IMG/VR virus record: IMGVR_UViG_3300047160_014297
Coordinates: 1 to 60,892 of that record
DNA length: 60,892 nt
DNA from: a virus
Direction: 5' to 3' (one strand)
Under the pieces are notes generated by a model. It searched no databases. It saw nothing but the letters and a program-made list of their open reading frames with translations, and was not told where the DNA came from. Both the position numbers and the translations under genes were made by a program. Of this stretch, positions 370 to 60,892 are shown in pieces. The stretch's first letter is position 1, and every line of letters begins with the position of its first letter.

Positions 370-630
370 ATGAACTGTCCGGATTGCGGGTCATGCCGGG
401 TGAAGGTGACCGACACCAAACGCCCGTCGACGGTCGAAAAGAGTCGGACGTCCGACCTGGAGAGATTGCTCGGTAGTCACAACGGAGTGGCCCGGCGCCG
501 GCGTTGTGAAGGTTGCGGCAACATGTGGACCACACTGGAGCTGGCTGTGGAAGTGCCACCGGCAACCTACAGTAGCCAGTACAAGAAAGGGTATGACTCG
601 CGACGGAAGCAGTGGAGACCACATGTTTGA
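370..630 (+). CDS. NrdR-like zinc-ribbon protein (no ATP-cone)
   Basis: MNCPDCGS..V.DT...RRRRCEGCGNMWTTLE matches the NrdR N-terminal CxxC...RRRR.CxxC..(F/W)TT.E pattern. Its stop overlaps the ATG at 623 (ATGTTTGA). Confidence 0.6.
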   Translation: MNCPDCGSCRVKVTDTKRPSTVEKSRTSDLERLLGSHNGVARRRRCEGCGNMWTTLELAVEVPPATYSSQYKKGYDSRRKQWRPHV

Positions 631-3986: not shown

Positions 3987-4386
3987 AAGAAAGAATCTAC
4001 CGGACGTGCTGGATTGTCTGGAAGATTCCAAGGATGACATGCAACGGGCGATCCGCTGTTTGGAACGTGCCCACCAGATCAAACTGATACTGGGTAGTGA
4101 ACGGGACAAACGAACAGGTAAACCCGAGTATGGCGACAAAAACTACGGGTTACTTGCGGAGCTGGAAGATCTGAAAGACGAGTTGAAAATGATTCAGGTC
4201 GCTAACGATTTGGAAGGGTTGAGGCACGGCCGGTTAGGGTCGGCCAGTATCGAGATGGACGGCAGACAGTATTTAGATCCGAAGTTGTTGATGGAAGCCG
4301 GAGTGACCGCCGCACAGATCGTCAAAGGGACCAAGCAAGGGGATAGCTATTATCAGACGACGCTATGGGAGATCAAGTCGGCCTAA
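3955..4386 (+). CDS. Hypothetical protein (charged, coiled-coil-like)
   Basis: 143-aa ORF and the last gene of the plus arm. Its stop overlaps the convergent stop of the tailspike gene. Confidence 0.6.
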   Translation: MAKSEPKPKTERKNLPDVLDCLEDSKDDMQRAIRCLERAHQIKLILGSERDKRTGKPEYGDKNYGLLAELEDLKDELKMIQVANDLEGLRHGRLGSASIEMDGRQYLDPKLLMEAGVTAAQIVKGTKQGDSYYQTTLWEIKSA

Positions 4387-6461: not shown

Positions 6462-8056
6462 TACTTTGCCATCACAGTCCAGTTCGTACCGTCACAGTAA
6501 GCCAGGACATGATTGGTGCCCGAGCCGGTGATGACAGCGCCCCACGTATTGGTCATCGAATCGTTGACGGCACGCATGGACCCTTCGGTGCCGCCACCGC
6601 AACCGGGCAGGACTGAGAATGCTACCGCGGTCGACTGGACCATACCGTTAATGGAAAGGGTAGGGTTGGGACCTTGGTTGGCTCCGGTAAACATCGTGAT
6701 GCCGTCATTGGAACCATTGGCGGTAGGGGACAACTGCATGAATGCTTTGTCACCGGCAGCGACCGTGTTGCGGAGGACGCCGACTGTGGATTCCCAGTCG
6801 AGCCGGATTTTATTGGTGCCACTGGCAACGAGGTTCAACGTTGGTGTATTGACAAGAGTCGAGAACAGACCGTTGGTACCGTTGACCGTCGAGGTCGTCA
6901 AGTTGGCCGCGCCAGTTATCGATCCGAGATAGACGTCCGTAACTGAGACGTTGCCGATCACACAGGTATTTGAGGTGTGGGCCAGTGCCGATGTCCCTAA
7001 GATACAAGTGTTGGAAAGTTGGGTGGTTGAGTCCGCACCGGTACCAAACCCGACCCATGTATTGAATTGACCGGTCAGGTTGGCGTTAGCGGGTGTTGCC
7101 GTGATGCCAGAGTTCATGCCAACCAATGTGTTGAACGATGCCGTGGTGTTGAAGTAACCGGCACCAAACCCCAGGAATGTGTTGTCGTTGCCGGTGGTGT
7201 TGTTGTTACCGGCAGTTTGGCCGTCCGCTGTGTTTTGAGAGCCGGTGGAGTTCGTGACGAGACATTGGTCGCCGGTACAGGTGTTGTTATTGCCGGTCGT
7301 GGTCGAGACCAGAGCGGAGTGGCCGACACCGGTGTTGTTGGAACCGGACGTTAAGGTTCCGAGGGCAGCAGCACCGACCGCGGAGTTGTTGGAGGTGGAG
7401 TTGGCGTTCACGAGAGTGTGCCAGCCGATCGCGATGTTGTCGGTACCGTTGCCACCAGCTGAACCGAGGGTTTGAAGGGCCAGGGAGCCTAGTGCCGTGT
7501 TGCCGCCATTGTTGCCGATACCGTTACATGAGAAGTACCCGATACAGGTGTTCTCGGCCGAATTCACATTGTGCTGGAGGGCGTTGAAACCCATGGCGAC
7601 GTTGGCTAGGGACTGGTTCTGGGTCTGGGTGGACATGGCGCCGATACCAACAGCAGTGTCGGTGTTGTCGGATCGGATCAAGGCGGGGGCGACCCGGTCG
7701 GCCAGCGTGAAGGCGGATGGGATACCGGCTTGATCGAGCTGGACGTTGTAATGGGAGCCACCGGTGCCGTAGAAGAACCACTGGCCGGACGTGTTGGCGA
7801 AGAATGGGTTAGAGAGAGCAGTGCCTTGGTTGTCGGAGAAAACGGTCGCGACCGTGCCAGTACCGTAGTTGAAGACAGTGATGCGGCACGATGGGTAGGA
7901 AAGCTGGACACGGTTGGACGAACGGATGCCGGAGGTTATGGCTTGCTGGTTGCCGTTCTCACAGAACCCCGAGATTAGAGTGTAGATGGGAGTCTGGGAG
8001 TGAACCGTGGAAGTAAGAAGTAAAAGTGAGAATAAGGTTAAGAGTAATCGTTTCAT
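6461..8056 (-). CDS. Tail-fibre-like protein with a Sec-signal-like N-terminus and NT/NS-rich repeats
   Basis: N-terminus is MKRLLLTLFSLLLLTSTVHSQ. It shares the SDNQGT.LSNPF.A..G.W.FY module with the tailspike. The central region has repeats of the NTA.G..AL type. ATGA overlap with the downstream gene. Confidence 0.7.
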   Translation of the reverse strand: MKRLLLTLFSLLLLTSTVHSQTPIYTLISGFCENGNQQAITSGIRSSNRVQLSYPSCRITVFNYGTGTVATVFSDNQGTALSNPFFANTSGQWFFYGTGGSHYNVQLDQAGIPSAFTLADRVAPALIRSDNTDTAVGIGAMSTQTQNQSLANVAMGFNALQHNVNSAENTCIGYFSCNGIGNNGGNTALGSLALQTLGSAGGNGTDNIAIGWHTLVNANSTSNNSAVGAAALGTLTSGSNNTGVGHSALVSTTTGNNNTCTGDQCLVTNSTGSQNTADGQTAGNNNTTGNDNTFLGFGAGYFNTTASFNTLVGMNSGITATPANANLTGQFNTWVGFGTGADSTTQLSNTCILGTSALAHTSNTCVIGNVSVTDVYLGSITGAANLTTSTVNGTNGLFSTLVNTPTLNLVASGTNKIRLDWESTVGVLRNTVAAGDKAFMQLSPTANGSNDGITMFTGANQGPNPTLSINGMVQSTAVAFSVLPGCGGGTEGSMRAVNDSMTNTWGAVITGSGTNHVLAYCDGTNWTVMAK

Positions 8057-17015: not shown

Positions 17016-20000
17016 TCACTTGTGAAGGATGAAGATGGTGCCGCGGTGGGACGGCTGTGCCGGGGCCGGAGTGATGTCAAACAGGTTCGAGACCGCGTTA
17101 CTGGCACCCGAGGCCGACGCCGTGAAGTTGCAACCGCTACCGGAGGCCGATGTGCCGACCGTGGAGAACACCTTGACACCGGCCGTGGCCGAGCCGGACG
17201 TGTTGGTGAACCCCGCGCCGCAGCCGTTGGCGGTCAAGGTGACGGTGCCACTGAATGTGTTGTCGGAATCGGTGACCGTAAAGGATGCCATGGTCATGCC
17301 GCTGACGGTCGTGGCCGGTTGAACCGTGAACGAGAGGGCGGCACCAACATTGAATGTGTTGGAAGTAGTGTTGTCGGCACCCGAGGCGGACGCGACGAAG
17401 GTACAGTTGGAACCCGAGCCGGTCATGTTCATGATCGAGAAGGTCGCCACACCAGCCGTATTGGGTTGAGTGTTGTTGGTGGCACTGACGCCGGGACAGC
17501 TCGTGACGGTGAGCGTGGTATTGCCGGTGAAGGTAGCGTCGGGATAGGTGACCTTGACGGTCGCCATTGTTGAGCCCGAGCCGGTATTGGACGGTTGGAT
17601 CGTGAAGACCAAGGGACCGCATCCGCCAGCCAGACGCACCATTCCCTTCGGCACACATTGATCGGCCACGTGAATATGGGTTTCCCAACCTGCTGGCAAG
17701 TCGGATAATGGATACACTTCGCATGTGTTGGTGGGCGCGTCGGTGACTCCACCTCCATTACGGCAGGGAACCGAATTGGCTGTCGCCCATGTAAAGAACG
17801 GGTTGGCGATACCGGCAACCGAGTAGGCTTCATCGCCTTCACGCTCGACGATTTCAAAGCATGGCGTGCCACAGGTGTCGGAAAAATAAATGCCGTAATG
17901 AGCCAGTGCGGTGATAAACGGTTTTTTCCATGATGGAATCGATAGTGCTGCGATTTGGGCGTCCGTATAGTCCAGGAAGAAAAGTTGCCCCTGGAACGGC
18001 CGATTCGTATTCGACACCATAACCGATGTGCATCCCAGAATACTGACCCGAGGTGATGGGAATACGTAGGAATTTGAGCCTAACGAATCGTTCACACAAT
18101 AACTATTTGTGATCAGAGCGTGCTGAATACTCCCAGCAACCACTTCGTGATGGCGTAGATCGGTTGACGCGAGTCGACTGTCAATACTGTAACCGTTGGG
18201 CTGGCCGTAATCGGGGGTGGAGAAAGCGCCAGGACTGCGGATGGTGGCAATCGCTGTGTCCAGAAATTGCAGGTCCAACGTGCAGCAGTTGGACATGTTG
18301 AAGTAACGTTTGTTGTAAAACGTGATGCCCTGCTCGTTGTTACCATGGAGACGGATATATTCGTTGTTGGTCTGGTCCCACAAATCAAAGAACGAGTCGC
18401 CGCCACAGCCGGGGTTCGTACAGGAAGTCAGGTAACTGAAGTGGGCACCGACCGGGATATGTGCGGTGAACCCGTTATGCATATCGCTGCCACAAGTGGT
18501 CCCAACCGCTTGGCAGTTGGTGAACGTCCACACCGGATCGGACGACTGACCGTAGAAGGTCGGGTTGGAGTTGTTGGCAGAGTTCGAATTGGGGTTATTG
18601 ACGTTCGGATTCGCCGTCGATGCCGACCCGACACTCTCCTTGAACACCTGAGACTGCCCGACCTCGCCCGTCAGTAAGGTCACCATTGCCGCCGAGTTCG
18701 CGATCAAGTGCCCCGTTGGACCGCCAGAACCGGCACCAGGAAGTTGAGTCGTGTAGAGGCCCCCGGGATAGGGCATGCAGGTGGATGGCTCCTGAGACGA
18801 GATCGTGAACGGGCCTGCACATGGATTTTGGACGGTCAGCGGATGCGGATAGGTGTAGGGGGTGTAACTCAGCGTCCAGGTGTTTGTGGAGGTGCACAGG
18901 TACAGATTGCCATTGCCGAATCCATTACCGCTCGTATTCCAGCTTCCTTCATCGGTGGCAAAATAACCAACGCCTGTAGTACATGCCGCAGGACGTCGGG
19001 CCTTTGTTCCGAAGCCATTTCCAGATGTTCCGTCGAATGGAGAACTCGAAGTCGTCTGCGCTGACTGTCCTAGCGTATCTACATAAAAATCTCTGTTCGC
19101 AATGATCCGCTTAGAACTTGCCTGTAGATAATAATAGATAGGACTGCCGCCGATGACAGCATTGTTCCAAGCGTAACTCGGTGAAGCAGCCTGAGCGGAT
19201 GAAGAGAGTGGGGTGGCGCTGTTACCGCCATTCGCCCCGGTATAGAGAAAGCCAGCACCACGGCCCATGCCTTGATCGACACATGCGCTTGCCCGTAATA
19301 TCTGGATCGAGTCTCCGTTGACTGGTGTCCAATCTCCCGGCCCTCCGCTTCCCACGTTTATGACAAGCGTATTCGCGGTGTTCGATATAATTTCCGTCCC
19401 GTCATTCAACGTCACATCATGCATGGAGTATGGCGCACCAGCCGGTATCCATTGGTTTGTTGTCCAGCCTGGACTTCCGGTAACCGTTACAGTCACCGCT
19501 GGATAGACTCCGGTGACTGTGCTGATTGTCCCGGAGTAATAAGTCACACCATCATTGGTGTCATATACGCTAGCACCGTCACACGCACCCCATCCGCCGA
19601 TGCTGGCATTGGTTCGTGGCGTGGTCACGCTAAAGAGTCCGTCTATGTTTGCGCCTGACGCGGATATATCGGCAGTGTTCCCAAACATCAGACCAGTACC
19701 ACTTCTACCACCGAGCAATCCTCCAGCAGACTCGGTGCTAGCCGCTACGGTAAACGTGTTGCCGTACTGCTCAAAAGCTCTCGCCCCGCGGGGGCGGCCA
19801 TTGGATTCTGTCCCGTGCCAGGCAAGGGCAGAATTCAAATGATCCATATTCGTGAACTTATTAAACCTCTGAACGATCCTGCCGCCGCCTTCTTCGGTTT
19901 GCTGACCGCTGACGCTGCCTTCATTGTCACAACAACCGGCTGCATTGAATGTATTGTTTTCAAAGAAGATGAAGTTAGCTGAGCCGTAATTTTCAGACTG

Positions 20001-20648
20001 TGCCCAGCTATTATCACCCCACTGTCCCACACCCAAATAACTGGAATGAGAAAACTCAATCAGCGCCAGATACGTGCATCCTGTGCCCGCGATGTTGTTG
20101 TGATCGAAAACCCCGAACATGTTGTCGATCACGCCGATCCCATAAGAAATATATGAAGTGGTGTGGCCGCACCAATTAGAGAATGTAATGTTGTCCATCC
20201 TCATGTTGGGGCATCCGCTAGATGTGCAAGTCCCCCAAAAGGAAAATCCTACCGAGGCACCGCTTCCGTAGGTGAGTGTCAAGCACGATAGGCGCGAGGT
20301 CGAATTACCATATTGAGGCCGCATATCAAAGGCGAGAATGCCAGTAATTGTCAGCGTCGTACCACCGCTACTACAAGAGGATGCTGGCAGGAAAGTACTC
20401 GTGCTGCTACTTGCCGTACCAGCGCCTTGAATTGTAATTCCAATATTTGAAGGGACGGTAATACCTGATGAATTCCATGTGCATGAACCTGCGGGAATTA
20501 TGATAACGTCCCCGTCCACTGCTGTGTGCGTCGGGCCGTTAATCACAGCATTGACGTCACTTTGATTACATGAAGCCGCTGTATAGGTTCCGGCAAAGAG
20601 GGACGTCGGCGCGAGGACGAGAATAGTGAAAATCAATCGGCGGATCAA
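17016..20648 (-). CDS. Secreted-type beta-helix polysaccharide-degrading-like protein with two C-terminal Ig-like repeats
   Basis: TTG start overlaps the upstream TGA. The N-terminus MIRRLIFTILVLAPTSLFAG is signal-peptide-like. The motif AASCNQSDVNAVINGP...DGDVIIIPAGSCTW is typical of secreted parallel beta-helix enzymes. There is a tandem repeat of about 90 aa at the C-terminus. Confidence 0.75.
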   Translation of the reverse strand: MIRRLIFTILVLAPTSLFAGTYTAASCNQSDVNAVINGPTHTAVDGDVIIIPAGSCTWNSSGITVPSNIGITIQGAGTASSSTSTFLPASSCSSGGTTLTITGILAFDMRPQYGNSTSRLSCLTLTYGSGASVGFSFWGTCTSSGCPNMRMDNITFSNWCGHTTSYISYGIGVIDNMFGVFDHNNIAGTGCTYLALIEFSHSSYLGVGQWGDNSWAQSENYGSANFIFFENNTFNAAGCCDNEGSVSGQQTEEGGGRIVQRFNKFTNMDHLNSALAWHGTESNGRPRGARAFEQYGNTFTVAASTESAGGLLGGRSGTGLMFGNTADISASGANIDGLFSVTTPRTNASIGGWGACDGASVYDTNDGVTYYSGTISTVTGVYPAVTVTVTGSPGWTTNQWIPAGAPYSMHDVTLNDGTEIISNTANTLVINVGSGGPGDWTPVNGDSIQILRASACVDQGMGRGAGFLYTGANGGNSATPLSSSAQAASPSYAWNNAVIGGSPIYYYLQASSKRIIANRDFYVDTLGQSAQTTSSSPFDGTSGNGFGTKARRPAACTTGVGYFATDEGSWNTSGNGFGNGNLYLCTSTNTWTLSYTPYTYPHPLTVQNPCAGPFTISSQEPSTCMPYPGGLYTTQLPGAGSGGPTGHLIANSAAMVTLLTGEVGQSQVFKESVGSASTANPNVNNPNSNSANNSNPTFYGQSSDPVWTFTNCQAVGTTCGSDMHNGFTAHIPVGAHFSYLTSCTNPGCGGDSFFDLWDQTNNEYIRLHGNNEQGITFYNKRYFNMSNCCTLDLQFLDTAIATIRSPGAFSTPDYGQPNGYSIDSRLASTDLRHHEVVAGSIQHALITNSYCVNDSLGSNSYVFPSPRVSILGCTSVMVSNTNRPFQGQLFFLDYTDAQIAALSIPSWKKPFITALAHYGIYFSDTCGTPCFEIVEREGDEAYSVAGIANPFFTWATANSVPCRNGGGVTDAPTNTCEVYPLSDLPAGWETHIHVADQCVPKGMVRLAGGCGPLVFTIQPSNTGSGSTMATVKVTYPDATFTGNTTLTVTSCPGVSATNNTQPNTAGVATFSIMNMTGSGSNCTFVASASGADNTTSNTFNVGAALSFTVQPATTVSGMTMASFTVTDSDNTFSGTVTLTANGCGAGFTNTSGSATAGVKVFSTVGTSASGSGCNFTASASGASNAVSNLFDITPAPAQPSHRGTIFILHK

Positions 20649-21346
20649 AACACACCCCCGCCTATCACAACGGCCTTATTGCTACTAGTTGCTGCCGCGA
20701 GAATGTGAAATCCATCTAGGATTGTAAAAGTGTTGCTTCCTGTCCATGAATGCGTGTTACTTGATCCTCCCAATGCATAACTTGCTGCCGCCAATCCACT
20801 CAGGTTATATAACTCCGTTTGACTCGTGGTCACCAAGCCAGCACCAGGGTTCATAATAAAAGCAACAGTCGCGTCTCCCACTGCCGAAGTCACCGCAAGG
20901 CTATATGGACTCGTTGATGGACCCGCCGAGCTATCATCGGCGGCCTTGCGGCACGTCACTTGATCCGTACCCGTAAAACTCACCAGACCCATAATTGGGG
21001 AATCTGCGTTCGTCCATGATGCCGAAATGGTTAGTGACGTACCCGCCGTTGGGGCGACGAGCAAAAATGTATCGATTCTTGTAGTGGCTCCGCCAAAACT
21101 AAATATCGATGTCATGGCCTGATTGGTTCCGGTGCTGTCCCAATGTATCGACGGAGAAGTCAGAGTGTTAAAGCCATGTAAGGTAACCAGCAGGCAACGA
21201 TTCGATCCTGAAATTGTCATTGTGGTCGTACAACTAGTGACCGAAGAACCACAATTGACACTGGTGGTGTGATCCAATGCCACAGCCGCCCACACCCCAA
21301 CTGGCCAGAGTCCGCACAGGAGAAGAACGAAAAGTGCGCGTCGCAT
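20645..21346 (-). CDS. Hypothetical protein with an N-terminal signal peptide
   Basis: Start is taken at ATG 21346, which overlaps the upstream stop as TAATG. N-terminus is MRRALFVLLLCGLWPVGVWAAVA. The protein is Ser/Thr-rich. Confidence 0.65.
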   Translation of the reverse strand: MRRALFVLLLCGLWPVGVWAAVALDHTTSVNCGSSVTSCTTTMTISGSNRCLLVTLHGFNTLTSPSIHWDSTGTNQAMTSIFSFGGATTRIDTFLLVAPTAGTSLTISASWTNADSPIMGLVSFTGTDQVTCRKAADDSSAGPSTSPYSLAVTSAVGDATVAFIMNPGAGLVTTSQTELYNLSGLAAASYALGGSSNTHSWTGSNTFTILDGFHILAAATSSNKAVVIGGGVF

Positions 21347-21858
21347 TAGAATTGATCCGCCCCACCGACAATCCGTAACTGGACTCCGGCTGACGTCTGG
21401 ACACAGAGATTGTCGGCATTGGTTGCTGTTTGAAACCATGATCCATTCCCGTAAGTTGGCCCGAGCACGTACCCGTGGATTGCCGTCGCGGAGGTACCAT
21501 CCAGAAGGTACGCCGGGGATATTGCCGTAAATGTCGTGACACAGTTGGTGCCGGTCCCGGTCCCGAACGTAACGGTGACACTCGATGCGCTGTCGTTGGA
21601 GAACTCGATGAACCGGACGTAGATTTTGGTAGCAGAGACACCCGCGATCAAGGTGGTCTTGCCGTTGGTGTTGGTGTCGTAGAGGATGTGGAGAGTGCCG
21701 CCGCGATCGGTGGCGGACATGACAGTGTCGGCATTGGCCGCGGTTTTGTTGGAGTTGGGCGGGACGTTGTTCTTGCCGATCGTGACAACAGCGGACTGAC
21801 CGAAGAGTAACGGTGCCAGTAGAAGTTCGAAGAGAACGAGTGTAAATGCTCGCTTCAT
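21346..21858 (-). CDS. Hypothetical protein with an N-terminal signal peptide
   Basis: Start is taken at ATG 21858 (GGTGAGGAA upstream). N-terminus is MKRAFTLVLFELLLAPLLFGQSA. Confidence 0.65.
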   Translation of the reverse strand: MKRAFTLVLFELLLAPLLFGQSAVVTIGKNNVPPNSNKTAANADTVMSATDRGGTLHILYDTNTNGKTTLIAGVSATKIYVRFIEFSNDSASSVTVTFGTGTGTNCVTTFTAISPAYLLDGTSATAIHGYVLGPTYGNGSWFQTATNADNLCVQTSAGVQLRIVGGADQF

Positions 21859-21868
21859 TGAGTGTTCC

Positions 21869-22459
21869 TCACCGGAGATAGACCGTGCCGTAGACCCATA
21901 AGACGTCACCGTTGGCAATCGTGCCGATGGTGATCAAGAGTTTGTCGGAGGCACCACCGTCGATGATACCGGAAGATAGTTCTCGGTAAAAGGTTCGAGA
22001 CATACCGAACGATGGTGAAGAGAAAGCTAGTTGAGAGCCCGAGGTGGGTGTGGTCGTGGGGTTGGCACCAACAAATACTGAGGGATTGTCAGGTGTTAAC
22101 GAGCTGGTGATCTGAGACTCGATACCAAGAGCGGTTAAGCGCCACGCCGCGCCGGGCGTGATCAGCACACCGTTACTTGTGGTTGCGACGTATTGTTGGC
22201 CGAACCCGATAGGGGCCGCCCCGCCAACGACGCTTACCGGTAACGGGTTGGTGGATTGAATGAGGTTGCCGGACGCATCGTAGAGTTGGAATGGGGCACA
22301 AATTAACGGTGAGCCGTACCCGACCAGTTTCTCGGCAGACGAGGTGCCGACGTCCCACTTAATGGCCTGTCGGGCCTTGCCGTCCCCGATATCGACACAC
22401 CGGACGCTCTTACCGAGGGGTGCTATTGGAGTATTGAGTATGACATCATCATCAGCCAT
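21869..22459 (-). CDS. Hypothetical virion protein
   Basis: 196-aa ORF that overlaps the upstream gene by 8 nt. Confidence 0.7.
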   Translation of the reverse strand: MADDDVILNTPIAPLGKSVRCVDIGDGKARQAIKWDVGTSSAEKLVGYGSPLICAPFQLYDASGNLIQSTNPLPVSVVGGAAPIGFGQQYVATTSNGVLITPGAAWRLTALGIESQITSSLTPDNPSVFVGANPTTTPTSGSQLAFSSPSFGMSRTFYRELSSGIIDGGASDKLLITIGTIANGDVLWVYGTVYLR

Positions 22460-37517: not shown

Positions 37518-38099
37518 CTACCGTCGCCTCCGGTCATCGATCGGTTCGCCACGCGGTACCTTATTCCAGGGTAGCTCGTCTACCGCTTCGCGACCGAACT
37601 CTTTCTCTACGGCACGTTCGTAATCGAATACCGCTCGCATGTGGGCTTCCGACCACGGCACCTTCATGTTGTCGATGGCGAATTGTACCGACGCCGCCTG
37701 GGTCCGTTCAACATCTCCGGGTGAGGTTACCGCTAAATCCCGTAAATCAGACGAGCGGCCACGGCCATTAGAACTCCCGTTAGAAGGGCGAGAAGCGCGG
37801 CGCGGAGGAATTGTTTCTGGCGCCGGTTCTTCCTCGTCATGGTCAGGACGGTGTCGATCGCGTTTCGGTGGCACATACTTCTCCTTACTGTCTTCTGTGA
37901 AGTTTTCGGTAATCTGTTGTTCGTAGAAAATCCACTCGCCTTGGGCAAACGACAGGTCGGATCGATCATGTTGCGGGTTGGAACCTTTCAGCCAGATATG
38001 CAGTTCGTGGTTGCGGGTACAGTAGTCAATCACGTTGTCGATAAAGTAGACGTTGCCACCGGACGGGACGGGGTTACGATAAACAATCTTGAGGGTCAT
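37518..38099 (-). CDS. Hypothetical protein
   Basis: 193-aa ORF with a basic, disordered middle region. Confidence 0.65.
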   Translation of the reverse strand: MTLKIVYRNPVPSGGNVYFIDNVIDYCTRNHELHIWLKGSNPQHDRSDLSFAQGEWIFYEQQITENFTEDSKEKYVPPKRDRHRPDHDEEEPAPETIPPRRASRPSNGSSNGRGRSSDLRDLAVTSPGDVERTQAASVQFAIDNMKVPWSEAHMRAVFDYERAVEKEFGREAVDELPWNKVPRGEPIDDRRRR

Positions 38100-38992
38100 T
38101 ACTTGCGACCTTTGGGTTTCGGGGTGTTACTTGGGGGTGGCGTCCACTTGGGGCGCGTAGCCTTAACGTGCTCGATCGCCGGTTCGGGTTCGGTCGTCGG
38201 TGAGCCTTCCATCATCATGGAGACGTCCGGTGCGTTACGGTTTTCCGCAAGGACACGGTCGACGTCGGAGCCACGCTGGACGTTACGTTGGAAGATTTCT
38301 CGGGCTTGGGATTCTTCCATGTGGTGGGCCGAGCCGACACGGAAGTCGGATTGAACGGGCGCGACCGAACCACCTCCCGACGAACCGGATTCGGCTATTT
38401 TTTGTGCGCCAACGATGGGGCCTTCACTACCGTCCCGTTCCTTAGCTTGTAACGATCCGTAATCCTGATCGACAAACGCGGCGTAGCGGCGCCTACCTAC
38501 TTGACGCGACGTAATGGACGGTTGGTTGGCCGGTATGGATTCGGCCGGAATAGGGCGCGGAGGTCTGGCGAACCGTTTACCTTCGTCGTCAGGGTCAATA
38601 TCTTGAGGGACAGTTTCAAGGACACCGGCTTGGCCGCGGATAGCCCGAGGTACTGGTAGAGAGTGTTCGTCACGGACTTGATCGGGAGGGTTGTTGCGGG
38701 AATCTACAGTAATGTCGGATTCGTGGTGCCGGACACCGATTTCGGAGTAACCATCTGGTAGAGGGGCGTCGGCGTTCACCGTCAACTGGTGTTGGTAGAC
38801 CTTGCGGTCGGGCATACCACCGTAGATGTCCAACGAAATTTCGAACCGCAGAACGAGCCGGGTCAGGGCGAAACGCTTTTGAAATTCCGGTACCGTTTGC
38901 AGGAAATCGTAGAAACGAGTGTGGAGGATTTCCGACGCTTCCTCACCGTTCAAATCGTCGTATTGAAGAGTTTTAGAGAGGTTGGGGTTCAT
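38099..38992 (-). CDS. Hypothetical protein
   Basis: Start is taken at ATG 38992 (MNPNLSK...), which overlaps the upstream stop by 20 nt. The track start at 39121 would overlap by 149 nt. Confidence 0.6.
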   Translation of the reverse strand: MNPNLSKTLQYDDLNGEEASEILHTRFYDFLQTVPEFQKRFALTRLVLRFEISLDIYGGMPDRKVYQHQLTVNADAPLPDGYSEIGVRHHESDITVDSRNNPPDQVRDEHSLPVPRAIRGQAGVLETVPQDIDPDDEGKRFARPPRPIPAESIPANQPSITSRQVGRRRYAAFVDQDYGSLQAKERDGSEGPIVGAQKIAESGSSGGGSVAPVQSDFRVGSAHHMEESQAREIFQRNVQRGSDVDRVLAENRNAPDVSMMMEGSPTTEPEPAIEHVKATRPKWTPPPSNTPKPKGRK

Positions 38993-39422
38993 TCGATTGC
39001 AGGTAATCCTCCATTTTAATCTGGTGGAAATCACAGCGGACCAGACCGCAGTCGGATCGGGTCTTGCAGTCACAGTTGCGGAACGTTTCGAGCCAACGCA
39101 AGTACTGTTGTAAGCGGCCACCGAACTCTGCGGGCTGATCGGTGTGCTTGATTTTGATACGGATGTGGATCACTTCGTTGTCCGAGCGAACAGCAACCAA
39201 GTGGCCGTGCCATGTACGGAATAGGGACGCTTCGGAATCGTCGGGCTGGAACCCAGTAAACGCGATGTTCAACCAGCCACGCTCCAGGACCGGTGACGGC
39301 ACGGTAACGTCAGTGGTGGTAACGTGCGTACCGTCTACCAATTCAGTGGTGGTAACGTCAGTGTGCCCAAGTTCTCCTTCCGTTATCGGGACCTGTGGTG
39401 GTTTATGATTGTGTTGGCCCAT
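38973..39422 (-). CDS. Hypothetical protein
   Basis: Start is taken at ATG 39422, one nt after the TAG of the upstream ORF. Confidence 0.6.
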   Translation of the reverse strand: MGQHNHKPPQVPITEGELGHTDVTTTELVDGTHVTTTDVTVPSPVLERGWLNIAFTGFQPDDSEASLFRTWHGHLVAVRSDNEVIHIRIKIKHTDQPAEFGGRLQQYLRWLETFRNCDCKTRSDCGLVRCDFHQIKMEDYLQSNEPQPL

Positions 39423-39423
39423 T

Positions 39424-39636
39424 CTAATTCCTTTCAATAGACGTACAGTAGGTTGTCTCGCACATCAAACACTTCACGTGCAGGTGTTGCGAGTGATCCT
39501 TTTTCTGTGTCATCACGAAGACGGAGAACGATGTGACTTGACCACAGTCGGGACAGGCGATCAGATCGCAGTCCTTCTTGTCGTAATCGACAGTTGAAAC
39601 TTTCTTGAGTTTGATCGGACTTTCTGTTGATGGCAT
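39424..39636 (-). CDS. Zinc-ribbon protein
   Basis: Two cysteine pairs are present: CPDCG...CLMC. Confidence 0.6.
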   Translation of the reverse strand: MPSTESPIKLKKVSTVDYDKKDCDLIACPDCGQVTSFSVFVMTQKKDHSQHLHVKCLMCETTYCTSIERN

Positions 39637-39639
39637 AAA

Positions 39640-40707
39640 CTACTCCTCTGGTTCTACCGGTTCATACACTGCCTTGTGGGGGTCGGGTACCTCGACGACC
39701 CTGTTACGTATCCAATCCGGTAACATGTCTTCGGTTACGAAAATGATCGACTTGTCGGCAAGGTACCGCTGGTGCTCTTTTAATTCGCGAGTAAGTCCGG
39801 CCGCCTCTAACTCTTCCATTAGTTTGTAACGGACTTGCTCGAAGTGTTCGGGCAGGAGTTCGAAGGCCCGTTTCAAGCAACCAACCGCCTCGGCGTGGCG
39901 GTTCAAGGCGGATAGAGATTGTCCCTTACAGAGCCACGACAGACCGTCATCCGGTAAAATACCGACCGCACGGTTCGACGAACGGACCGAATGCTGGAAC
40001 TCACCCAGGCAGAATTGGACGGTGGCGAGGTTGCGCCAACCGTCACATTCGGCGGGCCAACGTCTCGTTACTTCAAGTAGGATATCCCTCGCTTCGGCCA
40101 GTTTATCGGGGTCGGCGACCTGACCCGAACCGACCTTGGCCGCCGCTAAGTTAATAAGCAGGGTGCGACAATCACTGAAACCCGTTTTAAGAGTAGAGTA
40201 GATACGCTCCACTTCCAAGTGTTGGCCCATCTGGTTCAGTTGGTAGAAGTAGTTCGACATCACCCCAGGGTCGGGTGAGTCTGTAGTAGCCTTACGCCAG
40301 AAACGTTCCGAATTCGTGAAGAGTCCATTTCTGTAGAGAGTGCGGCAGGCAAAGAAAATCACCGTAGGTAGTAATACGTAGAGCGAGTGGGTCTGGCCCA
40401 AGTACGTGATCAGTAAGGCCATGCCAGCCGTCGCGAGGTAAGCACGATACTCTAGAACGATCTGCGGTACCGGACACCACGAATAAACGACGACCGGCGT
40501 TACTGTTAAGATTAATGCGAACCGGACAAGTGGGGATAACCAGGGCACTACCAGGAAACCGGCCAGTAAAGCAAGGAAAATCCACGTGATGAAAAGTTCC
40601 GGTTCCGTAGACTCTACGTCTGGAACGATCAAGTGCTGATGGATTCCCAGTAATGGACCACATACGTAATACCCTATCAACTGCGCGAGCTTGTGTTTAA
40701 ACGTCAT
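39640..40707 (-). CDS. C-terminal half of a TMTC/PMT-like GT-C glycosyltransferase: transmembrane helices plus a TPR domain
   Basis: Start is taken at ATG 40707 (MTFKHKL...), which overlaps the TAA of 40707..41438 (TAATG). It has 5-6 hydrophobic helices followed by TPR-like repeats. The track extension up to 41076 has no membrane character. Confidence 0.6.
   Translation of the reverse strand: MTFKHKLAQLIGYYVCGPLLGIHQHLIVPDVESTEPELFITWIFLALLAGFLVVPWLSPLVRFALILTVTPVVVYSWCPVPQIVLEYRAYLATAGMALLITYLGQTHSLYVLLPTVIFFACRTLYRNGLFTNSERFWRKATTDSPDPGVMSNYFYQLNQMGQHLEVERIYSTLKTGFSDCRTLLINLAAAKVGSGQVADPDKLAEARDILLEVTRRWPAECDGWRNLATVQFCLGEFQHSVRSSNRAVGILPDDGLSWLCKGQSLSALNRHAEAVGCLKRAFELLPEHFEQVRYKLMEELEAAGLTRELKEHQRYLADKSIIFVTEDMLPDWIRNRVVEVPDPHKAVYEPVEPEE
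40606..40618. repeat. Palindrome copy CGTAGACTCTACG (inside 39640..40707, read as VEST)
   Basis: Read directly. Confidence 0.95.
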
Positions 40708-41438
40708 TACGGTTTGAGCCACAGCGCCCCCACGATTACCGGTAGTAGAACGATCGCTTCTTCTTTCGAGAGTGCGGCCAGTACCGTGAACAGTACCGCG
40801 GACACGTACCGATGGTCGAGTACGGTTGCCACCACGCACAGTACGTACATACCACACAAGAGCGATGACCGCCCTGAAATATACGACACAGCCATGGTTG
40901 AGAGTGGATGTAACCCGAAGATTAACGTTCCTAAGAACGCCGGTAACGGGTCGAACCAGTGCCGTAGAATATGGTAGAAAACCCATACCGATACAAGGTG
41001 GATTGTGATGGAAGTGCGGTGCCAGCCGACCGGCGATATCCCGTAAAGGGACGCATCCATATTGTAGGTCAACCACGTTAACGGCCGCATCTTCACGAAC
41101 TCCTTCAACGAGTGACTACGGAACCATTGACCAAACCGTTGGAAAGGACTGGGGTACCCCTGTTTCAGGTATTGGTGGGGTTCGGCGGCCCATACCGCCA
41201 GATCATCGAACAGGAACGGGCCGTGCTCGACTCGCCGGTAAATAAGGTAGACGATCGTCACAGCGAGTAGTTCGTAAACGATGTCAGTTTTCAGTAGAAA
41301 CAACAGTGCCTCCATAACTACCCATAACCCGACCGTACAAACCAGCAGCCATTCGAGATAGATAAGCAAACGGATAACGTACAGGTGCCGGAAACTGCGA
41401 CCAGAATCGATCGGACCTTGCTGCAAGTTCACACTCAT
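40707..41438 (-). CDS. N-terminal (catalytic-loop) half of a TMTC/PMT-like GT-C glycosyltransferase
   Basis: PFLFDD, RPLTWLTYNMD..LYG..P.GWH....IH and HPLSTMAVSYISGRSSLL match the TMTC-type pattern as I remember it (F.FDD; SYRPL; FH..N..H; HPIHTEAV..GR..LL). The protein is multi-pass membrane. Confidence 0.6.
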   Translation of the reverse strand: MSVNLQQGPIDSGRSFRHLYVIRLLIYLEWLLVCTVGLWVVMEALLFLLKTDIVYELLAVTIVYLIYRRVEHGPFLFDDLAVWAAEPHQYLKQGYPSPFQRFGQWFRSHSLKEFVKMRPLTWLTYNMDASLYGISPVGWHRTSITIHLVSVWVFYHILRHWFDPLPAFLGTLIFGLHPLSTMAVSYISGRSSLLCGMYVLCVVATVLDHRYVSAVLFTVLAALSKEEAIVLLPVIVGALWLKP

Positions 41439-42228
41439 AACTGCGCCTCGCGAAAGTGGGGTTCTGCCCGATCAACGGTATCGATGTTCTGACGTCTTTC
41501 AGTAGGTAGGCGACCTGCTCAAAATGTTTCGGTAAGTTGCGGCCCAGCGTCTGGCCGAGTCCCAGCGGGTTGTACCGGTACACCGCCAGTTCGAACGGAA
41601 TATACCCAATCATACAGTGCGCCGCCAAGTCCAGCCAAGTCCACCAATCGGAATACTCGCGCAACTTGGGGTCACAGTTGAATTTCATGTACCCGGCCCG
41701 TGTCATGACGGTGCCGCCCGGTATGAAATTCTCCCGCAACAGGTCGTAGACGAGCGAGCCAGACGCGGCATGGTTGTAATGTGACCGGTGCTGCCACCGT
41801 ATACCGGTCTGGTCGGTAATGTAGGAATCACTGTAACAGGCACCGAATATCCGGTTGGTTTCCAGGTACCGTAGTTGGCGTTCCAGTTTCTCCGGTAACC
41901 ACAAATCGTCGTCGCACAACCACGACCAGTAGTCGCCGGTCGAGCGGTGCAGGGCTCTATCCAGCGAGACTGCAGGGTTACCCGAGTGGTCCATGAAGTA
42001 GGTGCGGATTCGTTTGTCGGTGTAGGCGAAATGCAAGACCTCTTTCATGGTGTCGTCGGTCGAGCCGTCATCCAAAACAAGTAATTCCCAGTTCGGCCAT
42101 GTCTGGAGTTGGACCGACCGGATCGCGTCGATCACCAACTTCGGTCTGTTGTAGGTCGTCAAGAATACGGTTACTTTAAGATTCTTGTCCAACACGGGCG
42201 CGAGCCTCCCGACGGTGAGCTTGGTCAT
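41284..42228 (-). CDS. Family 2 glycosyltransferase (GT-A fold)
   Basis: VTVFLTTYNRPKLVIDAIRSVQLQTWPNWELLVLDDGSTDDT is followed by a CDDD (DxD) motif. Start could be ATG 42228 or GTG 42195. The 3' end overlaps the next gene by up to 155 nt. Confidence 0.8.
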   Translation of the reverse strand: MTKLTVGRLAPVLDKNLKVTVFLTTYNRPKLVIDAIRSVQLQTWPNWELLVLDDGSTDDTMKEVLHFAYTDKRIRTYFMDHSGNPAVSLDRALHRSTGDYWSWLCDDDLWLPEKLERQLRYLETNRIFGACYSDSYITDQTGIRWQHRSHYNHAASGSLVYDLLRENFIPGGTVMTRAGYMKFNCDPKLREYSDWWTWLDLAAHCMIGYIPFELAVYRYNPLGLGQTLGRNLPKHFEQVAYLLKDVRTSIPLIGQNPTFARRSYECELAARSDRFWSQFPAPVRYPFAYLSRMAAGLYGRVMGSYGGTVVSTEN

Positions 42229-42559
42229 TTCGTTTTTGGCGGTACGCTTCGTATTCCAGTCGCGCGTCACGCCGGTCCCGCCACCAGTCGGCAGACAACT
42301 CGGCATGCCGTATCTTCAAATGTAGCGGGCATCGCAACTTACCATCGGACGGTTTGCCACAATCCACACAAGAATGTCGGCGAGTCCCTGGTCGTTTGAA
42401 CTGGATGCCCGCCGACCGTAACGAGTACCGTACCGACGAGTAGGAACATTTCACTCGTCTTCCGCGGAGTAACCGGACAATTTTAGAGATGGAGAAACCA
42501 GCAAGGTAGAGTTCGATTGCTTGCTGGCGGGATTGTCCGGTTACGATAGGCGTGGCCAC
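42176..42559 (-). CDS. HTH DNA-binding protein; first gene of the minus-strand arm after the divergent promoter
   Basis: SRQQAIELYLAGFSISKIVRLL is an HTH. A Cys cluster CVDCG...CPLH is also present. GTG 42559 has AGGAGA 12 nt upstream. The track start at 42688 would run through the promoter region. Confidence 0.55.
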   Translation of the reverse strand: MATPIVTGQSRQQAIELYLAGFSISKIVRLLRGRRVKCSYSSVRYSLRSAGIQFKRPGTRRHSCVDCGKPSDGKLRCPLHLKIRHAELSADWWRDRRDARLEYEAYRQKRNDQAHRREARARVGQES

Positions 42560-42590
42560 GCGATTACAATTTCTCCTGGATTGAAATCGA

Positions 42591-42619
42591 TTGAAATCAT
42601 CCGAACAATACTTTAGAAT
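42591..42619 (+). promoter_or_regulatory. Sigma70-like promoter TTGAAA-17 nt-TAGAAT, 8 nt upstream of ATG 42628
   Basis: Read directly. The -35 box is the second copy of a ttgaaatcga tandem duplication. Confidence 0.5.
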
Positions 42620-42634
42620 AGTTTTCCATGTCAA
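42605..42634 (-). promoter_or_regulatory. Divergent sigma70-like promoter TTGACA-18 nt-TATTGT for the HTH/glycosyltransferase/late arm
   Basis: Reverse complement of 42629-42634 is TTGACA and of 42605-42610 is TATTGT. It overlaps the plus-strand promoter. Confidence 0.45.
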
Positions 42635-58883: not shown

Positions 58884-59122
58884 ACGACTCGATCTACTGC
58901 ATCGAAACATGGAACGGCGTCACCTACGCGATACCTTGCCGAAGGGACGATGCCGACTCGTCGGTGCCATCAGCTAGACCGTTGCTGATCGCGTCCGACC
59001 CCGAAAGCGCCATGTGCTTTATCGATTACGTATTCAAGCGGAATGCGGAGCTGACATACCGAGAGTGGAACCGGGAGTTCCGGGAGGCTGGGTTTGATGT
59101 CCCAGAGACGATATTCGGATGA
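58880..59122 (+). CDS. Hypothetical protein
   Basis: TTG start overlaps the upstream TGA, with GGAGG 5 nt upstream. Confidence 0.5.
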   Translation: MNDSIYCIETWNGVTYAIPCRRDDADSSVPSARPLLIASDPESAMCFIDYVFKRNAELTYREWNREFREAGFDVPETIFG

Positions 59123-59901
59123 TCCTCGTCGATGACCGTATCGGGTCCGTTGAAGTGGTGCCCTACTTGAGGCCTTACGGGTTGAACGTCGAAGTGACCC
59201 GGTTACCGATCGGTGACTTTCAGTTTGTCGGTAACGGTCCGGACGGTGACGTCGATGTCGGGATTGAACGGAAGCGGTTGACCGATCTGGTGCAGTGTAT
59301 CCGCGACAAGCGACTTGCCGGGTTTCAACTGATCGGTGATGACGACAAACCAGGGTTACTGGAAACGTTCGATTACCTGTATTTGGTGGTGGAGGGGGTG
59401 TACCGGCCCGGACTCCGCGGAACAACAGAGTACCTACGGGCCGGAGAATGGACCACGTTATGTGCGGGCTCAAGTCCGATCTTGTATTTGGAAGTCGATT
59501 CTTTTTTGACGAGTTTGGCGCTGAGAGGTATTACACGGATCGGCGAGCCTGTCCGTGTCGACCGGACAGCGTCCATTCAAGAGACGGGCGCCCACATCGC
59601 GACACTGGTGTCGAACTGGACCGGCAAGTTGTGGAAGGAGCACCGGTCACACAGGGACATCTACACCAGGGTTCCGAGGGTCGTGAAAGGTAAGGTGGGG
59701 TTCGTCAAGCCGAGAAATGATTTGACGGTCAAAATGATCGCCCAGATCGACGGGTTGCACGAAAAGGCGTGGGAGTGCCGGAAGTATTTCGAATTACCGG
59801 AAGATTTCGTAGGAGCGAGTGTTCGTAAGTGGCAACAGGTTGATGGAATAGGCAAGAAAATGGCCGAACGGATCGTAGGGCAGTTGCGGAGGGTCAAGTG
59901 A
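59119..59901 (+). CDS. ERCC4 (XPF/Mus81/Hef-type) nuclease with a C-terminal helix-hairpin-helix
   Basis: GDFQF....VGIERKRLTDL gives the GDxn-ERKx3D motif. The C-terminal VDGIGKKMAERIV is an HhH. Confidence 0.75.
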   Translation: MILVDDRIGSVEVVPYLRPYGLNVEVTRLPIGDFQFVGNGPDGDVDVGIERKRLTDLVQCIRDKRLAGFQLIGDDDKPGLLETFDYLYLVVEGVYRPGLRGTTEYLRAGEWTTLCAGSSPILYLEVDSFLTSLALRGITRIGEPVRVDRTASIQETGAHIATLVSNWTGKLWKEHRSHRDIYTRVPRVVKGKVGFVKPRNDLTVKMIAQIDGLHEKAWECRKYFELPEDFVGASVRKWQQVDGIGKKMAERIVGQLRRVK

Positions 59902-60206
59902 AGAAAGTGATGTTGCTGGTTGCCGGTTTACTGTTGCTGATAGCAACATCCGCCGATGGTTATCGGTCGCCCAGGTCCTGCGACGGAAACCCAGCGAACG
60001 ACGACACTCACTGCAGGTGTGTGTTGTGGCACGACTTCAAAGAGAGCTTTTGCCGGGACACGTCGAAAATGATGCCAGCGTGTTGTATCGCGACGGAGAA
60101 GAAGTCGAAGTTTAGGTTGTGCCGGTGTTGTGGGTATTTGATTGATATTGTCAAGCGGGGCTGGGTTATCTACTCGCATGAGAACGTGGTGGAGTACCAG
60201 CAATGA
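59898..60206 (+). CDS. Secreted Cys-rich small protein
   Basis: GTG start. Signal peptide is MKKVMLLVAGLLLLIATSADG. The mature part has 10 Cys. Confidence 0.55.
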   Translation: MKKVMLLVAGLLLLIATSADGYRSPRSCDGNPANDDTHCRCVLWHDFKESFCRDTSKMMPACCIATEKKSKFRLCRCCGYLIDIVKRGWVIYSHENVVEYQQ

Positions 60207-60691
60207 TTGAACGGATTGTGAGTGGTGGTCAGACCGGGGTCGATACCGGTGCCCTGCTGGCCGGTTATGCGCTGGATTTACGGACGGGTGGCTGGGCGCC
60301 GAAAGACTGGATGACCGAATACGGTGAACAGCCGGAATTCATGCAACTGTTGGGATTGAAAGAATCACCTGCCGGTTACGCTTCAGCCGTGGAGAGGAAC
60401 GTCAGGGATAGCGACGGGACACTGCTGATCGTGCCGGATGGCCAGGGGTTTACCGGTGGGACCCACACCGCGTTTTGTGTCGCGGAAAGTTTAGAGAAGC
60501 CACTGTATGTCTGGAGGTGGATTGGCGGCAGGGCAAGTCTCGATATTTGTTTGGGGTTGTGGGGTTATTTGCACCAGGTGAGGACGTTGAACGTGGTGGG
60601 GCCGAGCGAGAGTGGATGGAGGGACGGGACACGGGTTGCGGCAGAGTATCTGTTGCGGGAGTTGGCCGATCAGACGAGGTGGGATGTATGA
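60203..60691 (+). CDS. SLOG-superfamily protein of the 'molybdenum-cofactor-carrier'/YpsA-like type
   Basis: IVSGGQTGVDTGALLAGYALDLRTGGWAPKDWMTEYG...NVRDSDGTLLI matches the SGGQTG.D...GGW.P.G...E...NV.DSDGTL pattern. Confidence 0.6.
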   Translation: MIERIVSGGQTGVDTGALLAGYALDLRTGGWAPKDWMTEYGEQPEFMQLLGLKESPAGYASAVERNVRDSDGTLLIVPDGQGFTGGTHTAFCVAESLEKPLYVWRWIGGRASLDICLGLWGYLHQVRTLNVVGPSESGWRDGTRVAAEYLLRELADQTRWDV

Positions 60692-60892
60692 CGTTACGGT
60701 GGACGTTACGGTGGATCGTGCACGTGGTACTGATGGCGGCGACGATGACGGGCGCAGACGCAGGCGTTCAATTAAGGAGGGAAAGTAACGTGGGAATGCC
60801 GATTAACAATGAGACATTGATAGCGTGTGTCATTTGCGGGCATGACATCATGCTGCACAGGCCCGAGGACGACTGGCCTTGCGATGTCTGTT
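60688..60892 (+). CDS. N-terminal part of the junction-spanning ORF (continues at 1..123; about 87 aa in total)
   Basis: ATGA coupling to the upstream stop. MTLRWTLRW is encoded by a 12-bp tandem duplication (60691-60714). A hydrophobic segment follows. Confidence 0.45.
   Translation, partial: MTLRWTLRWIVHVVLMAATMTGADAGVQLRRESNVGMPINNETLIACVICGHDIMLHRPEDDWPCDVC
60829..60892. repeat. Second copy of the 64-bp terminal direct repeat
   Basis: Identical to bases 1-64. Confidence 0.95.

Follow-up and report, generated by a model that had tools for sequence, protein, structure and literature searches.

Glycosyltransferases of the GT-C fold (the OST, PMT, TMTC, ArnT, Alg, and Emb enzymes) are, to our knowledge, thought always to be single chains acting on the far side of the membrane. 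The present analysis concerns a module of the phage genome IMGVR_UViG_3300047160_014297 of IMG/VR (the window, i.e., the whole stretch of 60,892 nucleotides that was analysed), in which such an enzyme, together with a TPR domain, is encoded by two genes, hereafter the N-half and the C-half, and lacks transmembrane helix (TM) 7. This conserved two-gene, TM7-less GT-C with a TPR domain, placed in the backbone of a phage, is a new form of a known enzyme class. Taken as a whole, the data are best explained if the N-half and the C-half are two subunits of one PMT_2/TMTC-related GT-C with a TPR domain that faces the cytoplasm, a reading to which we assign a probability of about one half.

The closest described proteins are bacterial PMT_2/TMTC-like GT-C proteins of ~600 amino acids (aa) with a TPR domain (e.g., P0003 of Candidatus Methylomirabilis), whose membrane and TPR domains are homologous to those of the phage form (hhalign P = 99.9 for the N-half family and 99.4 for the C-half family) and which carry the same invariant DD, RP, HP..GR, KE, and E..Y motifs. 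These proteins are single chains with 11 TM and cytoplasmic loops rich in lysine and arginine (K/R), whereas the phage form is spread over two genes, counts 10 TM because TM7 and its loop are deleted, has the reverse charge bias, reads GRSS for GRxD, and bears an additional C-terminal FVT.DMLP motif. The bacterial PMT_2+TPR family is abundant and uncharacterised, and the phage system offers a compact entry point for its annotation. In eukaryotes, TMTC1-4 (GT105; TMTC_DUF1736) join the same GT-C membrane domain to TPRs that follow it, and share with the phage form motifs M1 (DD), M4 (KE), and M7 (E-R-x-x-Y-like) as well as the interfacial helix of the TM7-TM8 loop (PMC7801869). TMTC1-4 are single-chain and face the lumen of the endoplasmic reticulum, whereas the phage form has no significant DUF1736 or PMT_2 match, a partial M2, and an altered M3.

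Other known systems resemble the phage form in architecture, fold, or genomic setting. Among bacterial GT-C enzymes that combine 11 TM and a DDx motif with a TPR domain at the C-terminus, TfpW of Pseudomonas aeruginosa, a pilin D-arabinofuranosyl transferase with an ArnT-based model, is the only one studied by experiment; its acceptor is a protein (bioRxiv 10.1101/2020.04.19.049825). TfpW is chromosomal, single-chain, and encoded beside pilA, its TPRs are periplasmic, and its likeness to the phage form is drawn from architecture. ArnT (5ezm, 5f15), STT3/PglB/AglB, and Pmt1/2/4 are the best structural neighbours, with a common N-terminal module and a catalytic acidic residue in the first loop, at TM-scores of 0.35-0.49 and with no sequence-level match; none of them is split or lacks TM7. 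The Gtr systems of phages (GtrA flippase, GtrB family 2 glycosyltransferase, or GT2, and GtrC GT-C) are also phage-borne and also combine a GT2 with an integral-membrane glycosyltransferase. The window differs from them in that its GT2 is not GtrB-like and is not conserved with the GT-C, no GtrA is present, no integrase was detected in open reading frames (ORFs) of at least 300 aa, and the GT-C belongs to another family and bears TPRs.

Homology and division of the GT-C enzyme

A sequence-only reading of the window had placed a glycosylation module of four genes at 39640-42634, and four consecutive ORFs were indeed found on the minus strand between 39.6 and 42.7 kb, two of which are the N-half and the C-half (Table 1). 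A fused N+C query retrieves the ~600-aa bacterial PMT_2+TPR proteins, named protein O-mannosyl-transferase in the sources, and an alignment shows that the window sequence retains every near-invariant residue of that family. In the N-half, the motifs FLFDD (D37 and D38), MRPLTW (R77), HPLSTMAVSYISGRSS, which includes HP (P137) and GRSS (R149), and SKEE (K184 and E186) align with invariant columns of these proteins, which bears out the resemblance of the FLFDD, RPLTW, and GRSS loops to TMTC/PMT enzymes proposed earlier. No variation was seen at D37, D38, R77, P137, G148, R149, K184, or E186 among 21 N-halves that are 30-43% identical; the DD motif lies in the first loop, directly after TM1, and is invariant both in these 21 sequences and in 14 full-length relatives. 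An hhalign comparison of the two sets gave P = 99.9 (E = 5.6e-36) over profile columns 19-218 of 581, and at least 27 protein clusters of stand-alone ~200-aa N-halves were found.

The C-half, whose analysis is based on five C-halves, aligned with the full-length family over profile columns 252-567 (hhalign P = 99.4, E = 1.8e-21). From its N-terminus it comprises a JM3-like interfacial helix, D31, TM8-TM11 with an EYRxY loop, a basic cluster, the TPR domain, and a conserved C-terminal motif, IFVTEDMLP..IR.R, with an FVT.DMLP core, which is specific to the split family. The interfacial helix, at which the C-half begins, is equivalent to JM3 of the TM7-TM8 loop (Pfam DUF1736). D31, E87-Y88-R89-x-Y91, and FVT.DMLP are invariant in the five sequences. 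Relatives of the C-half were found as P0002/L001 and in L009, L010, L011, L014, L015, and L017; an exact-sequence look-up of the window C-half returned no record. The TPR repeats predicted to follow the TM helices in this piece were corroborated by a Pfam TPR_2 match (27.3 bits, cut-off 27), by many TPR matches of the fused protein among PDB sequences (E down to 2e-13), and by TPR helical repeats in the AlphaFold2 (AF2) model. Cysteines in the TPR domain number 2-5, mostly odd, in the split family and 0-4 in full-length relatives, a count that is weakly informative.

The two genes meet at TAATG, where the stop codon of the N-half and the start codon of the C-half overlap by one base. Together the halves cover profile columns 19-218 and 252-567, and columns 219-251 alone are absent. 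In P0003, the missing columns fall at about residues 234-286 and comprise TM7 and the cytoplasmic loop between TM6 and TM7, so the split enzyme has 6 + 4 = 10 TM on two chains. The position of the break is shared, to the residue, by L001, L002, L009, L010, L013, L014, L015, and L017, at 34-46% identity, and the order N-half then C-half recurs in every locus with enough sequence (the window, L001, L009, L010, L011, L014, L015/L016, and L017). For instance, in L001, a 1.5-kb Logan contig, an N-half ending in ...GGLWWLKLIP before its stop is followed by a C-half 42% identical, and L002 holds a 202-aa N-half ending in ...WWLRP. In a search of 1.84 billion representative proteins with a profile of two N-halves, the top 24 matches (E = 1e-49 to 1e-21) were 184-240 aa long, spanned the profile in full, and all stopped at the same position, with full-length proteins ranking below them.

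That the two pieces represent a broken gene (through sequencing error or as a pseudogene), or one protein made by programmed ribosomal frameshifting, is suggested by the two ORFs lying in different frames with a 1-nt overlap and by the C-half frame being open for 122 codons upstream of its ATG. Such an origin is barely conceivable and is refuted by the comparison across loci: the same break is found in at least eight independent loci, catalytic-type motifs are invariant in both halves, and a fused chain without TM7 could not keep the halves in register. Moreover, the halves are separated by spacers of 185 nt in L011 and 309 nt in L010, which are non-coding with stops in all frames, and frameshifting and sequencing error are thereby excluded. 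The open stretch upstream of the C-half, which overlaps the end of the N-half gene, is probably due to chance, since relatives with long spacers do without it. Sequence comparison thus indicates that the split into two genes is real. The L010 (3115..3422) and L011 (825..1008) spacers differ by a ~124-nt insertion or deletion between otherwise near-identical contigs.

In GT-C_A enzymes, a conserved 7-TM module precedes a variable one, which accounts for most contacts with the acceptor (PMC13503287), and the cut lies one helix before the boundary between the two. Because the TM6-TM7 loop and TM7 are lost, the halves would have to insert separately and assemble in the host inner membrane, where they would form one enzyme. 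A natural, widely conserved cut near the boundary of the donor and acceptor modules would allow a direct test of GT-C modularity in which halves are mixed and matched.

Several observations weigh against the assignment to GT-C. No Pfam GT-C model (PMT_2, TMTC_DUF1736) matches the N-half, the membrane part of the C-half, or the fused membrane domain; among 12 full-length relatives, PMT_2 matches two and TMTC_DUF1736 one. The profile searches envisaged by the sequence-only reading thus gave a divided result, since Glycos_transf_2 and TPR_2 match window proteins and PMT_2 and DUF1736 fail on them. A profile search of PDB sequences with the membrane domain gave no match, and the fused protein gave TPR matches only. 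GT-C membership is therefore based on profile-profile homology and on fold. Because a Foldseek search with the full-length model was swamped by TPR proteins, a membrane-only AF2 model was built (pLDDT 73.9, pTM 0.77), and its nine closest PDB neighbours by Foldseek are GT-C enzymes without exception, including STT3 (7oci_F, E = 0.022), ArnT (5ezm/5f15, TM-score 0.49), and Pmt4 (9e61). These nine matches are weak (probability 0.63-1.0, E 0.02-0.4, TM-scores 0.27-0.49), and the junction region between the halves was modelled at pLDDT <50. On the strength of the hhalign scores and of these nine neighbours, the TMTC/PMT-like identity proposed earlier is retained.

The motifs were compared with TMTC motifs M1-M7 of Eisenhaber et al., namely DD, SHKSYRP, RxD, KE(T/Q)xxT, DW, PxxP, and ERxxY (PMC7801869). 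M1 (DD) and M4 (KE) are present, M7 is present as EYRxY, RP alone is kept of M2, and M6 is represented by one invariant proline. On the negative side, M3 (RxD) keeps its arginine and has serine in place of aspartate (GRSS), and M5 (DW) is without a clear counterpart, possibly corresponding to the invariant D31 after the interfacial helix. We also know of no bacterial member of the PMT_2+TPR family for which activity, donor, or acceptor has been shown.

The invariance of motifs in both halves argues for an active enzyme, and the equivalence of K184/E186 and of E-Y-R-x-Y to the phosphate- and metal-binding M4 and M7 suggests that a polyprenyl-phosphate-linked donor would be used. The lack of a Pfam GT-C match, the altered M3, and the family-specific FVT.DMLP motif would also be compatible with the loss of glycosyltransferase activity and the retention of a membrane-anchored TPR scaffold, e.g., for the control of assembly or lysis. 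We consider this very unlikely, because the residues that remain invariant across 21 diverged N-halves (DD, RP, HP, GR, and KE) are the donor- and metal-binding positions of the homologues and because the EYRxY loop is invariant in the C-halves.

Membrane orientation and proposed mechanism

Lysine and arginine residues (K+R) were counted in the motif-anchored segments of the N-half that are canonically cytoplasmic, i.e., the N-flank, the TM2-3 loop, the TM4-5 loop, and the 20 residues after TM6, and compared by a Mann-Whitney test; the final statistics were limited to motif-anchored N-half segments because automatic detection of TM7 in full-length proteins is imperfect. The mean was 1.37 K+R in 27 split sequences vs. 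10.56 (range 4-18) in 81 full-length sequences (p = 8e-15), and five of the 27 N-halves have no K/R at all in these segments. Conversely, loop EL1 carries 8.7 K+R in the split family vs. 5.0 in full-length relatives (p = 4e-10). The N-tails of the N-halves, up to 27 residues long, are acidic and devoid of K/R. In the C-halves, the two short canonically cytoplasmic loops hold 1.2 K+R, whereas the N-tail, EL5, and the first 25 residues beyond TM11 hold 10.0, with an RxRRR-type basic cluster (e.g., RRRAR) directly after TM11; the C-half N-tail has 42-60 aa, 2-5 K/R, and no export signal.

Under the positive-inside rule, this charge distribution predicts a topology that is the reverse of that of canonical GT-C enzymes. 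The GT-C active site, with its DD loop, JM3 helix, and EYRxY loop, and the TPR domain would then face the cytoplasm, which would make this enzyme the first GT-C with an inverted topology, a proposal that we rate at slightly below even odds. The N-half would end outside with a tail of 3-9 residues, and the TM7-less split fits this orientation because the C-half would start inside and need no export signal. The periplasmic orientation assumed in the sequence-only reading is thus placed in doubt. Several points weigh against the inversion in turn. The positive-inside rule is its sole basis; much of the positive charge is located in long loops (EL1, ~75-100 aa), where the rule holds less strictly; full-length relatives also carry 2-4 K/R after TM11; the evidence from C-halves comes from five sequences only; and the TPRs of TfpW, the nearest characterised analogue, are periplasmic. 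Furthermore, we know of no GT-C with a cytoplasmic active site.

The same two-subunit enzyme could instead adopt the canonical orientation, with a periplasmic active site and TPR domain and a flipped polyprenyl-phosphate-linked sugar donor, and its targets would be host envelope proteins or glycans (for receptor masking or superinfection exclusion) or secreted phage proteins. Several points favour this arrangement: every characterised GT-C enzyme faces the extracytoplasmic side, the TPR-bearing TfpW and the TMTCs among them; full-length relatives export their TPRs despite the K/R after TM11; four phage proteins, some of which are rich in Ser/Thr, have classical Sec signal peptides; and the pectate-lyase-type tailspike of the phage implies a glycan receptor. 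However, the canonically cytoplasmic loops are nearly without K/R in all 27 N-halves, the N-tails contain acidic residues without any K/R, and a C-half that has neither TM7 nor a signal peptide would have to translocate its K/R-bearing N-tail. We regard the canonical orientation as possible, at odds clearly short of even.

In the mechanism that we propose, the two subunits would come together in the inner membrane of the host and jointly form one GT-C active site. The N-half would provide the conserved GT-C module minus its last helix, with the DD loop, RP, HP..GR, and KE, which in homologues bind sugar, metal, and lipid phosphate, and the C-half would supply the TPR domain, TM8-TM11, and two loops, one acidic and the other the phosphate-binding EYRxY loop. 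If other GT-C enzymes are a guide, selection of the acceptor would fall to the C-half with its TPR domain; the acceptor, most likely a protein, would be held by this domain and receive a sugar from a host polyprenyl-phosphate-linked donor. With the inverted topology, the donor would be consumed before flipping, on the inner leaflet where its synthesis takes place, and the short uncharged loops would lie outside. On the one hand, an enzyme that faces the cytoplasm would act on cytoplasmic targets, e.g., host proteins or the structural or packaging proteins that the phage encodes just downstream, and not on envelope proteins or secreted phage proteins. On the other hand, an enzyme that faces the periplasm could modify envelope components or the four phage proteins with signal peptides. 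Were the inversion true, it would overturn the rule that lipid-linked donors serve only after flipping and would represent a new route to the glycosylation of cytoplasmic proteins.

The adjoining GT2 and a proposed Gtr-like function

The GT2 encoded directly upstream of the N-half has the GT-A fold attributed to it by the sequence-only reading: it matches Pfam Glycos_transf_2 (PF00535; E = 2.7e-23, 83.2 bits vs. a cut-off of 23.3) and contains the DDGSTDDT (LDDGSTDD) and CDDD motifs. Its NCBIfam matches are TuaG (E = 2.6e-30), EpsE, PglI, and WcaA, all of a type that acts on lipid-linked or polymer acceptors, and its best PDB match is SpsA (E = 2.8e-13), with chondroitin synthase and heparosan synthase also matching. 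The nearest cellular relatives of this GT2 sit in dTDP-sugar biosynthesis clusters that have no GT-C.

The pairing of a GT2 with a GT-C had been taken as the lipid-carrier logic of Gtr seroconversion, in which the GT2 attaches a sugar to undecaprenyl phosphate and, after flipping, the GT-C hands this sugar on to a surface polymer or protein. The position of the GT2 next to the GT-C genes speaks for such a function, as does the existence of a comparable pairing in cells: in L007 (6001..8879 of JAOSKH010000009.1, Candidatus Methylomirabilis), a full-length PMT_2+TPR gene overlaps by 4 nt a GT2 gene whose product, which served as a positive control, scores 137 bits (7e-40) on the ArnC model and also matches PgfS and Dol-P-hexose transferases. 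The window GT2, in contrast, gave no ArnC/GtrB-type match in NCBIfam or the PDB and merely 24 bits on PgfS; its similarity to the L007 enzyme is marginal (BLASTP E = 0.001) and confined to the GT-A nucleotide-binding region; and it has no hydrophobic segment and no TM or anchoring helix. It is also absent from all 11 related loci scanned, including L001, L002, L009, L010, L013, L014, L015, and L017, and is thus not inherited together with the GT-C. In these loci, the slot upstream of the N-half is variable and occupied by small ORFs, with HTH (helix-turn-helix) and Acb2/Tad1-hairpin genes nearby. No small multi-TM ORF that could encode a GtrA-like flippase is present between 38 and 43 kb, and the lack of an integrase is a further point against a Gtr-like module. 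Gtr-style logic thus exists in cells, as L007 illustrates, but does not appear to be encoded by the window, whose GT2 is not ArnC/GtrB-like, and we consider a Gtr-like function quite unlikely; this part of the sequence-only reading found no support, the family calls and the phage context were upheld, and the orientation is in doubt. The GT2 is a window-specific soluble add-on of the TuaG/WcaA type, which may extend the same glycan in the cytoplasm or independently alter a lipid-linked surface glycan.

L007 is a cellular locus in which the donor-making enzyme of the uncharacterised PMT_2+TPR family could be studied. An exosortase fragment and BNR-repeat genes lie near its PMT_2+TPR gene.

Phage genome, synteny, and neighbouring genes

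The window begins and ends with an exact 64-nt direct repeat, which indicates a complete circular or terminally redundant genome of 60,828 bp. Its TerL is 29% identical, over 92% of the length, to that of Tunturiibacter phage Tunturi_1, one of the podoviruses Tunturi 1/2, which infect Tunturiibacter, a genus of Acidobacteriota (PMC11924767). The window also encodes an SU10-type adaptor, lysozyme, helicases, ParB, DNA Pol A, and UDG-superfamily and exonuclease domains; PHROGs gave almost no matches for its structural genes. The lack of an integrase noted previously was borne out in that no integrase domain was found in any window ORF of at least 300 aa.

The module had been described as heading an operon that runs into the terminase, and it is indeed a block upstream of the terminase with syntenic relatives. 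L009, whose TerL is 74% identical to that of the window, shares the order N-half, C-half, p112, p271, ..., TerL, portal, and the four-gene order N-half, C-half, p112, p271 is repeated in L010, L014, L015 (an IMG/VR viral genome), and L017. The divergence of the N/C pair (34-43% identity) matches that of the neighbour genes. Conserved gene order thus indicates that the pair is a backbone gene block of an uncultured, podovirus-like group from soil and not a sporadic moron; its place in the backbone suggests that glycosylation is built into the infection cycle as an integral step. INPHARED phage records contain no relative of the membrane domain, the cultured phages Tunturi 1/2 do not carry the module, and IMG/VR scans with single proteins gave no match; an IMG/VR scan with the 21-sequence alignment yielded one locus. 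The metagenome scan was made with six close sequences.

The features of the window are compiled in Table 1. The N-half had earlier been drawn as 40707..41438; its character as a GT-C-type membrane protein holds, and its most likely start is the ATG at 41315, which gives 202 aa instead of 243, because the family start is conserved there and the longer form overlaps the GT2 gene by 155 nt. The protein begins with MEALL, of which ME.LL is kept in the closest relative, and the 243-aa version, with its additional N-terminal TM helix, was dropped.

Table 1. Coordinates of the split GT-C genes and of other features in the window.
Feature	Coordinates	Strand	Remarks
Direct repeat	1-64; 60829-60892		64 nt, exact
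Replication-arm genes	60203..60691; 59119..59901; 506..2014	+
Tailspike gene	4383..6461	-	692 aa; pectate-lyase/right-handed beta-helix and endosialidase N-terminal domains
Signal-peptide protein gene	6461..8056	-
Signal-peptide protein gene	17016..20648	-
Signal-peptide protein gene	20645..21439	-	start MRRALFVLLL..., internal
Signal-peptide protein gene	21346..21918	-	start MKRAFTLVLF..., internal
p271 family gene	38099..38962	-	DLNGEE..EILHTRF...QDYGSLQ...HAPVQ.DF, basic proline-rich tail; no Pfam match; follows p112
p112 family gene	38973..39437	-	core ~39021..39284; ERGWL...RSD...RNCxC...CxxH; no Pfam match; follows C-half
Zinc-ribbon-like gene	39424..39636	-	70 aa; two CxxC pairs; weak Pfam matches; directly after C-half
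C-half of split GT-C	39640..40710	-	355 aa, TM8-TM11 + TPR domain
Reading frame of C-half, full open extent	39640..41076	-	122 codons upstream of the ATG
N-half of split GT-C	40707..41315	-	202 aa, TM1-TM6; JGI calls the same 202-aa protein (P0029)
GT2 gene	41284..42228	-	soluble GT-A-fold glycosyltransferase; alternative start 42306 gives 340 aa, the JGI call
HTH-like gene	42176..42559	-	small basic protein; probable HTH, then CxxC...CxxH zinc-ribbon-like motif; start uncertain, ORF open from 42688
Candidate divergent promoter pair	42591..42634	both	overlapping sigma-70-like matches from consensus scan
Minus-strand promoter match	42634..42605	-	TTGACA-18-TATTGT, 10/12 consensus positions
Plus-strand promoter match	42591..42619	+	TTGAAA-17-TAGAAT, 10/12 consensus positions

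For the HTH gene, the ORF proposed earlier exists, and its assignment comes from sub-threshold matches, namely the Terminase_5 HTH in Pfam (E = 0.005, 17.1 bits, below the cut-off of 20.3) and an IS6 HTH (E = 0.002). HTH_3 or HTH_5 genes occupy the same slot in related loci. Homologues of the HTH-like protein occur in L015 (E = 4e-10) and L017 (E = 8e-11) on the strand opposite to the GT-C genes, so the gene is no fixed member of the module. The divergent promoter pair claimed upstream of it corresponds to the two sigma-70-like matches of Table 1; with seven sigma-70 sites in the 4-kb region vs. 3.2 ± 1.8 expected, these matches are suggestive and the pair is a candidate only.

Downstream of the C-half, p112 and p271, which always follow it in this order, may interact with the enzyme as partners or serve as its substrates; alternatively, they may be no more than conserved genes of the packaging region. 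Phmmer matches to p112 (E = 1e-19 to 1e-23, in the same order) and to p271 (E = 1e-21 to 3e-74) were obtained in L009, L010, L014, L015, and L017, and the two genes together span 38099..39437 (-) in the window, 8513..9641 in L009, 4517..5615 in L010, 3720..4941 in L014, and 11447..12582 in L015. A Thr-rich stretch of the window p112 was considered as a conserved acceptor site and rejected, as it is not conserved in relatives. Tblastn with L009 proteins gave no match in the interval of the window that holds the zinc-ribbon-like gene. Small proteins with an Acb2/Tad1 hairpin, an anti-CBASS/anti-Thoeris sponge fold, head the same operon before the HTH gene in L009 (5535..5882), L010 (1656..1871), and L012 (189..404); no such match was found in the corresponding slot of the window.

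The signal-peptide-bearing proteins predicted previously were confirmed as four proteins with classical signal peptides (e.g., MKRLLLTLFSLLLLTSTVHS followed by Q), encoded in the structural-gene arm and without a Pfam match. One of the four has 1210 aa and a Ser/Thr-rich N-terminal region; secreted proteins of such size are unusual in the structural module of a tailed phage. The domains of the tailspike gene are of the depolymerase type and imply a polysaccharide receptor. The replication-arm genes encode a circularly permuted YpsA SLOG-family protein, an ERCC4-type nuclease, and a UDG-superfamily/3'-5' exonuclease fusion that precedes DNA Pol A.

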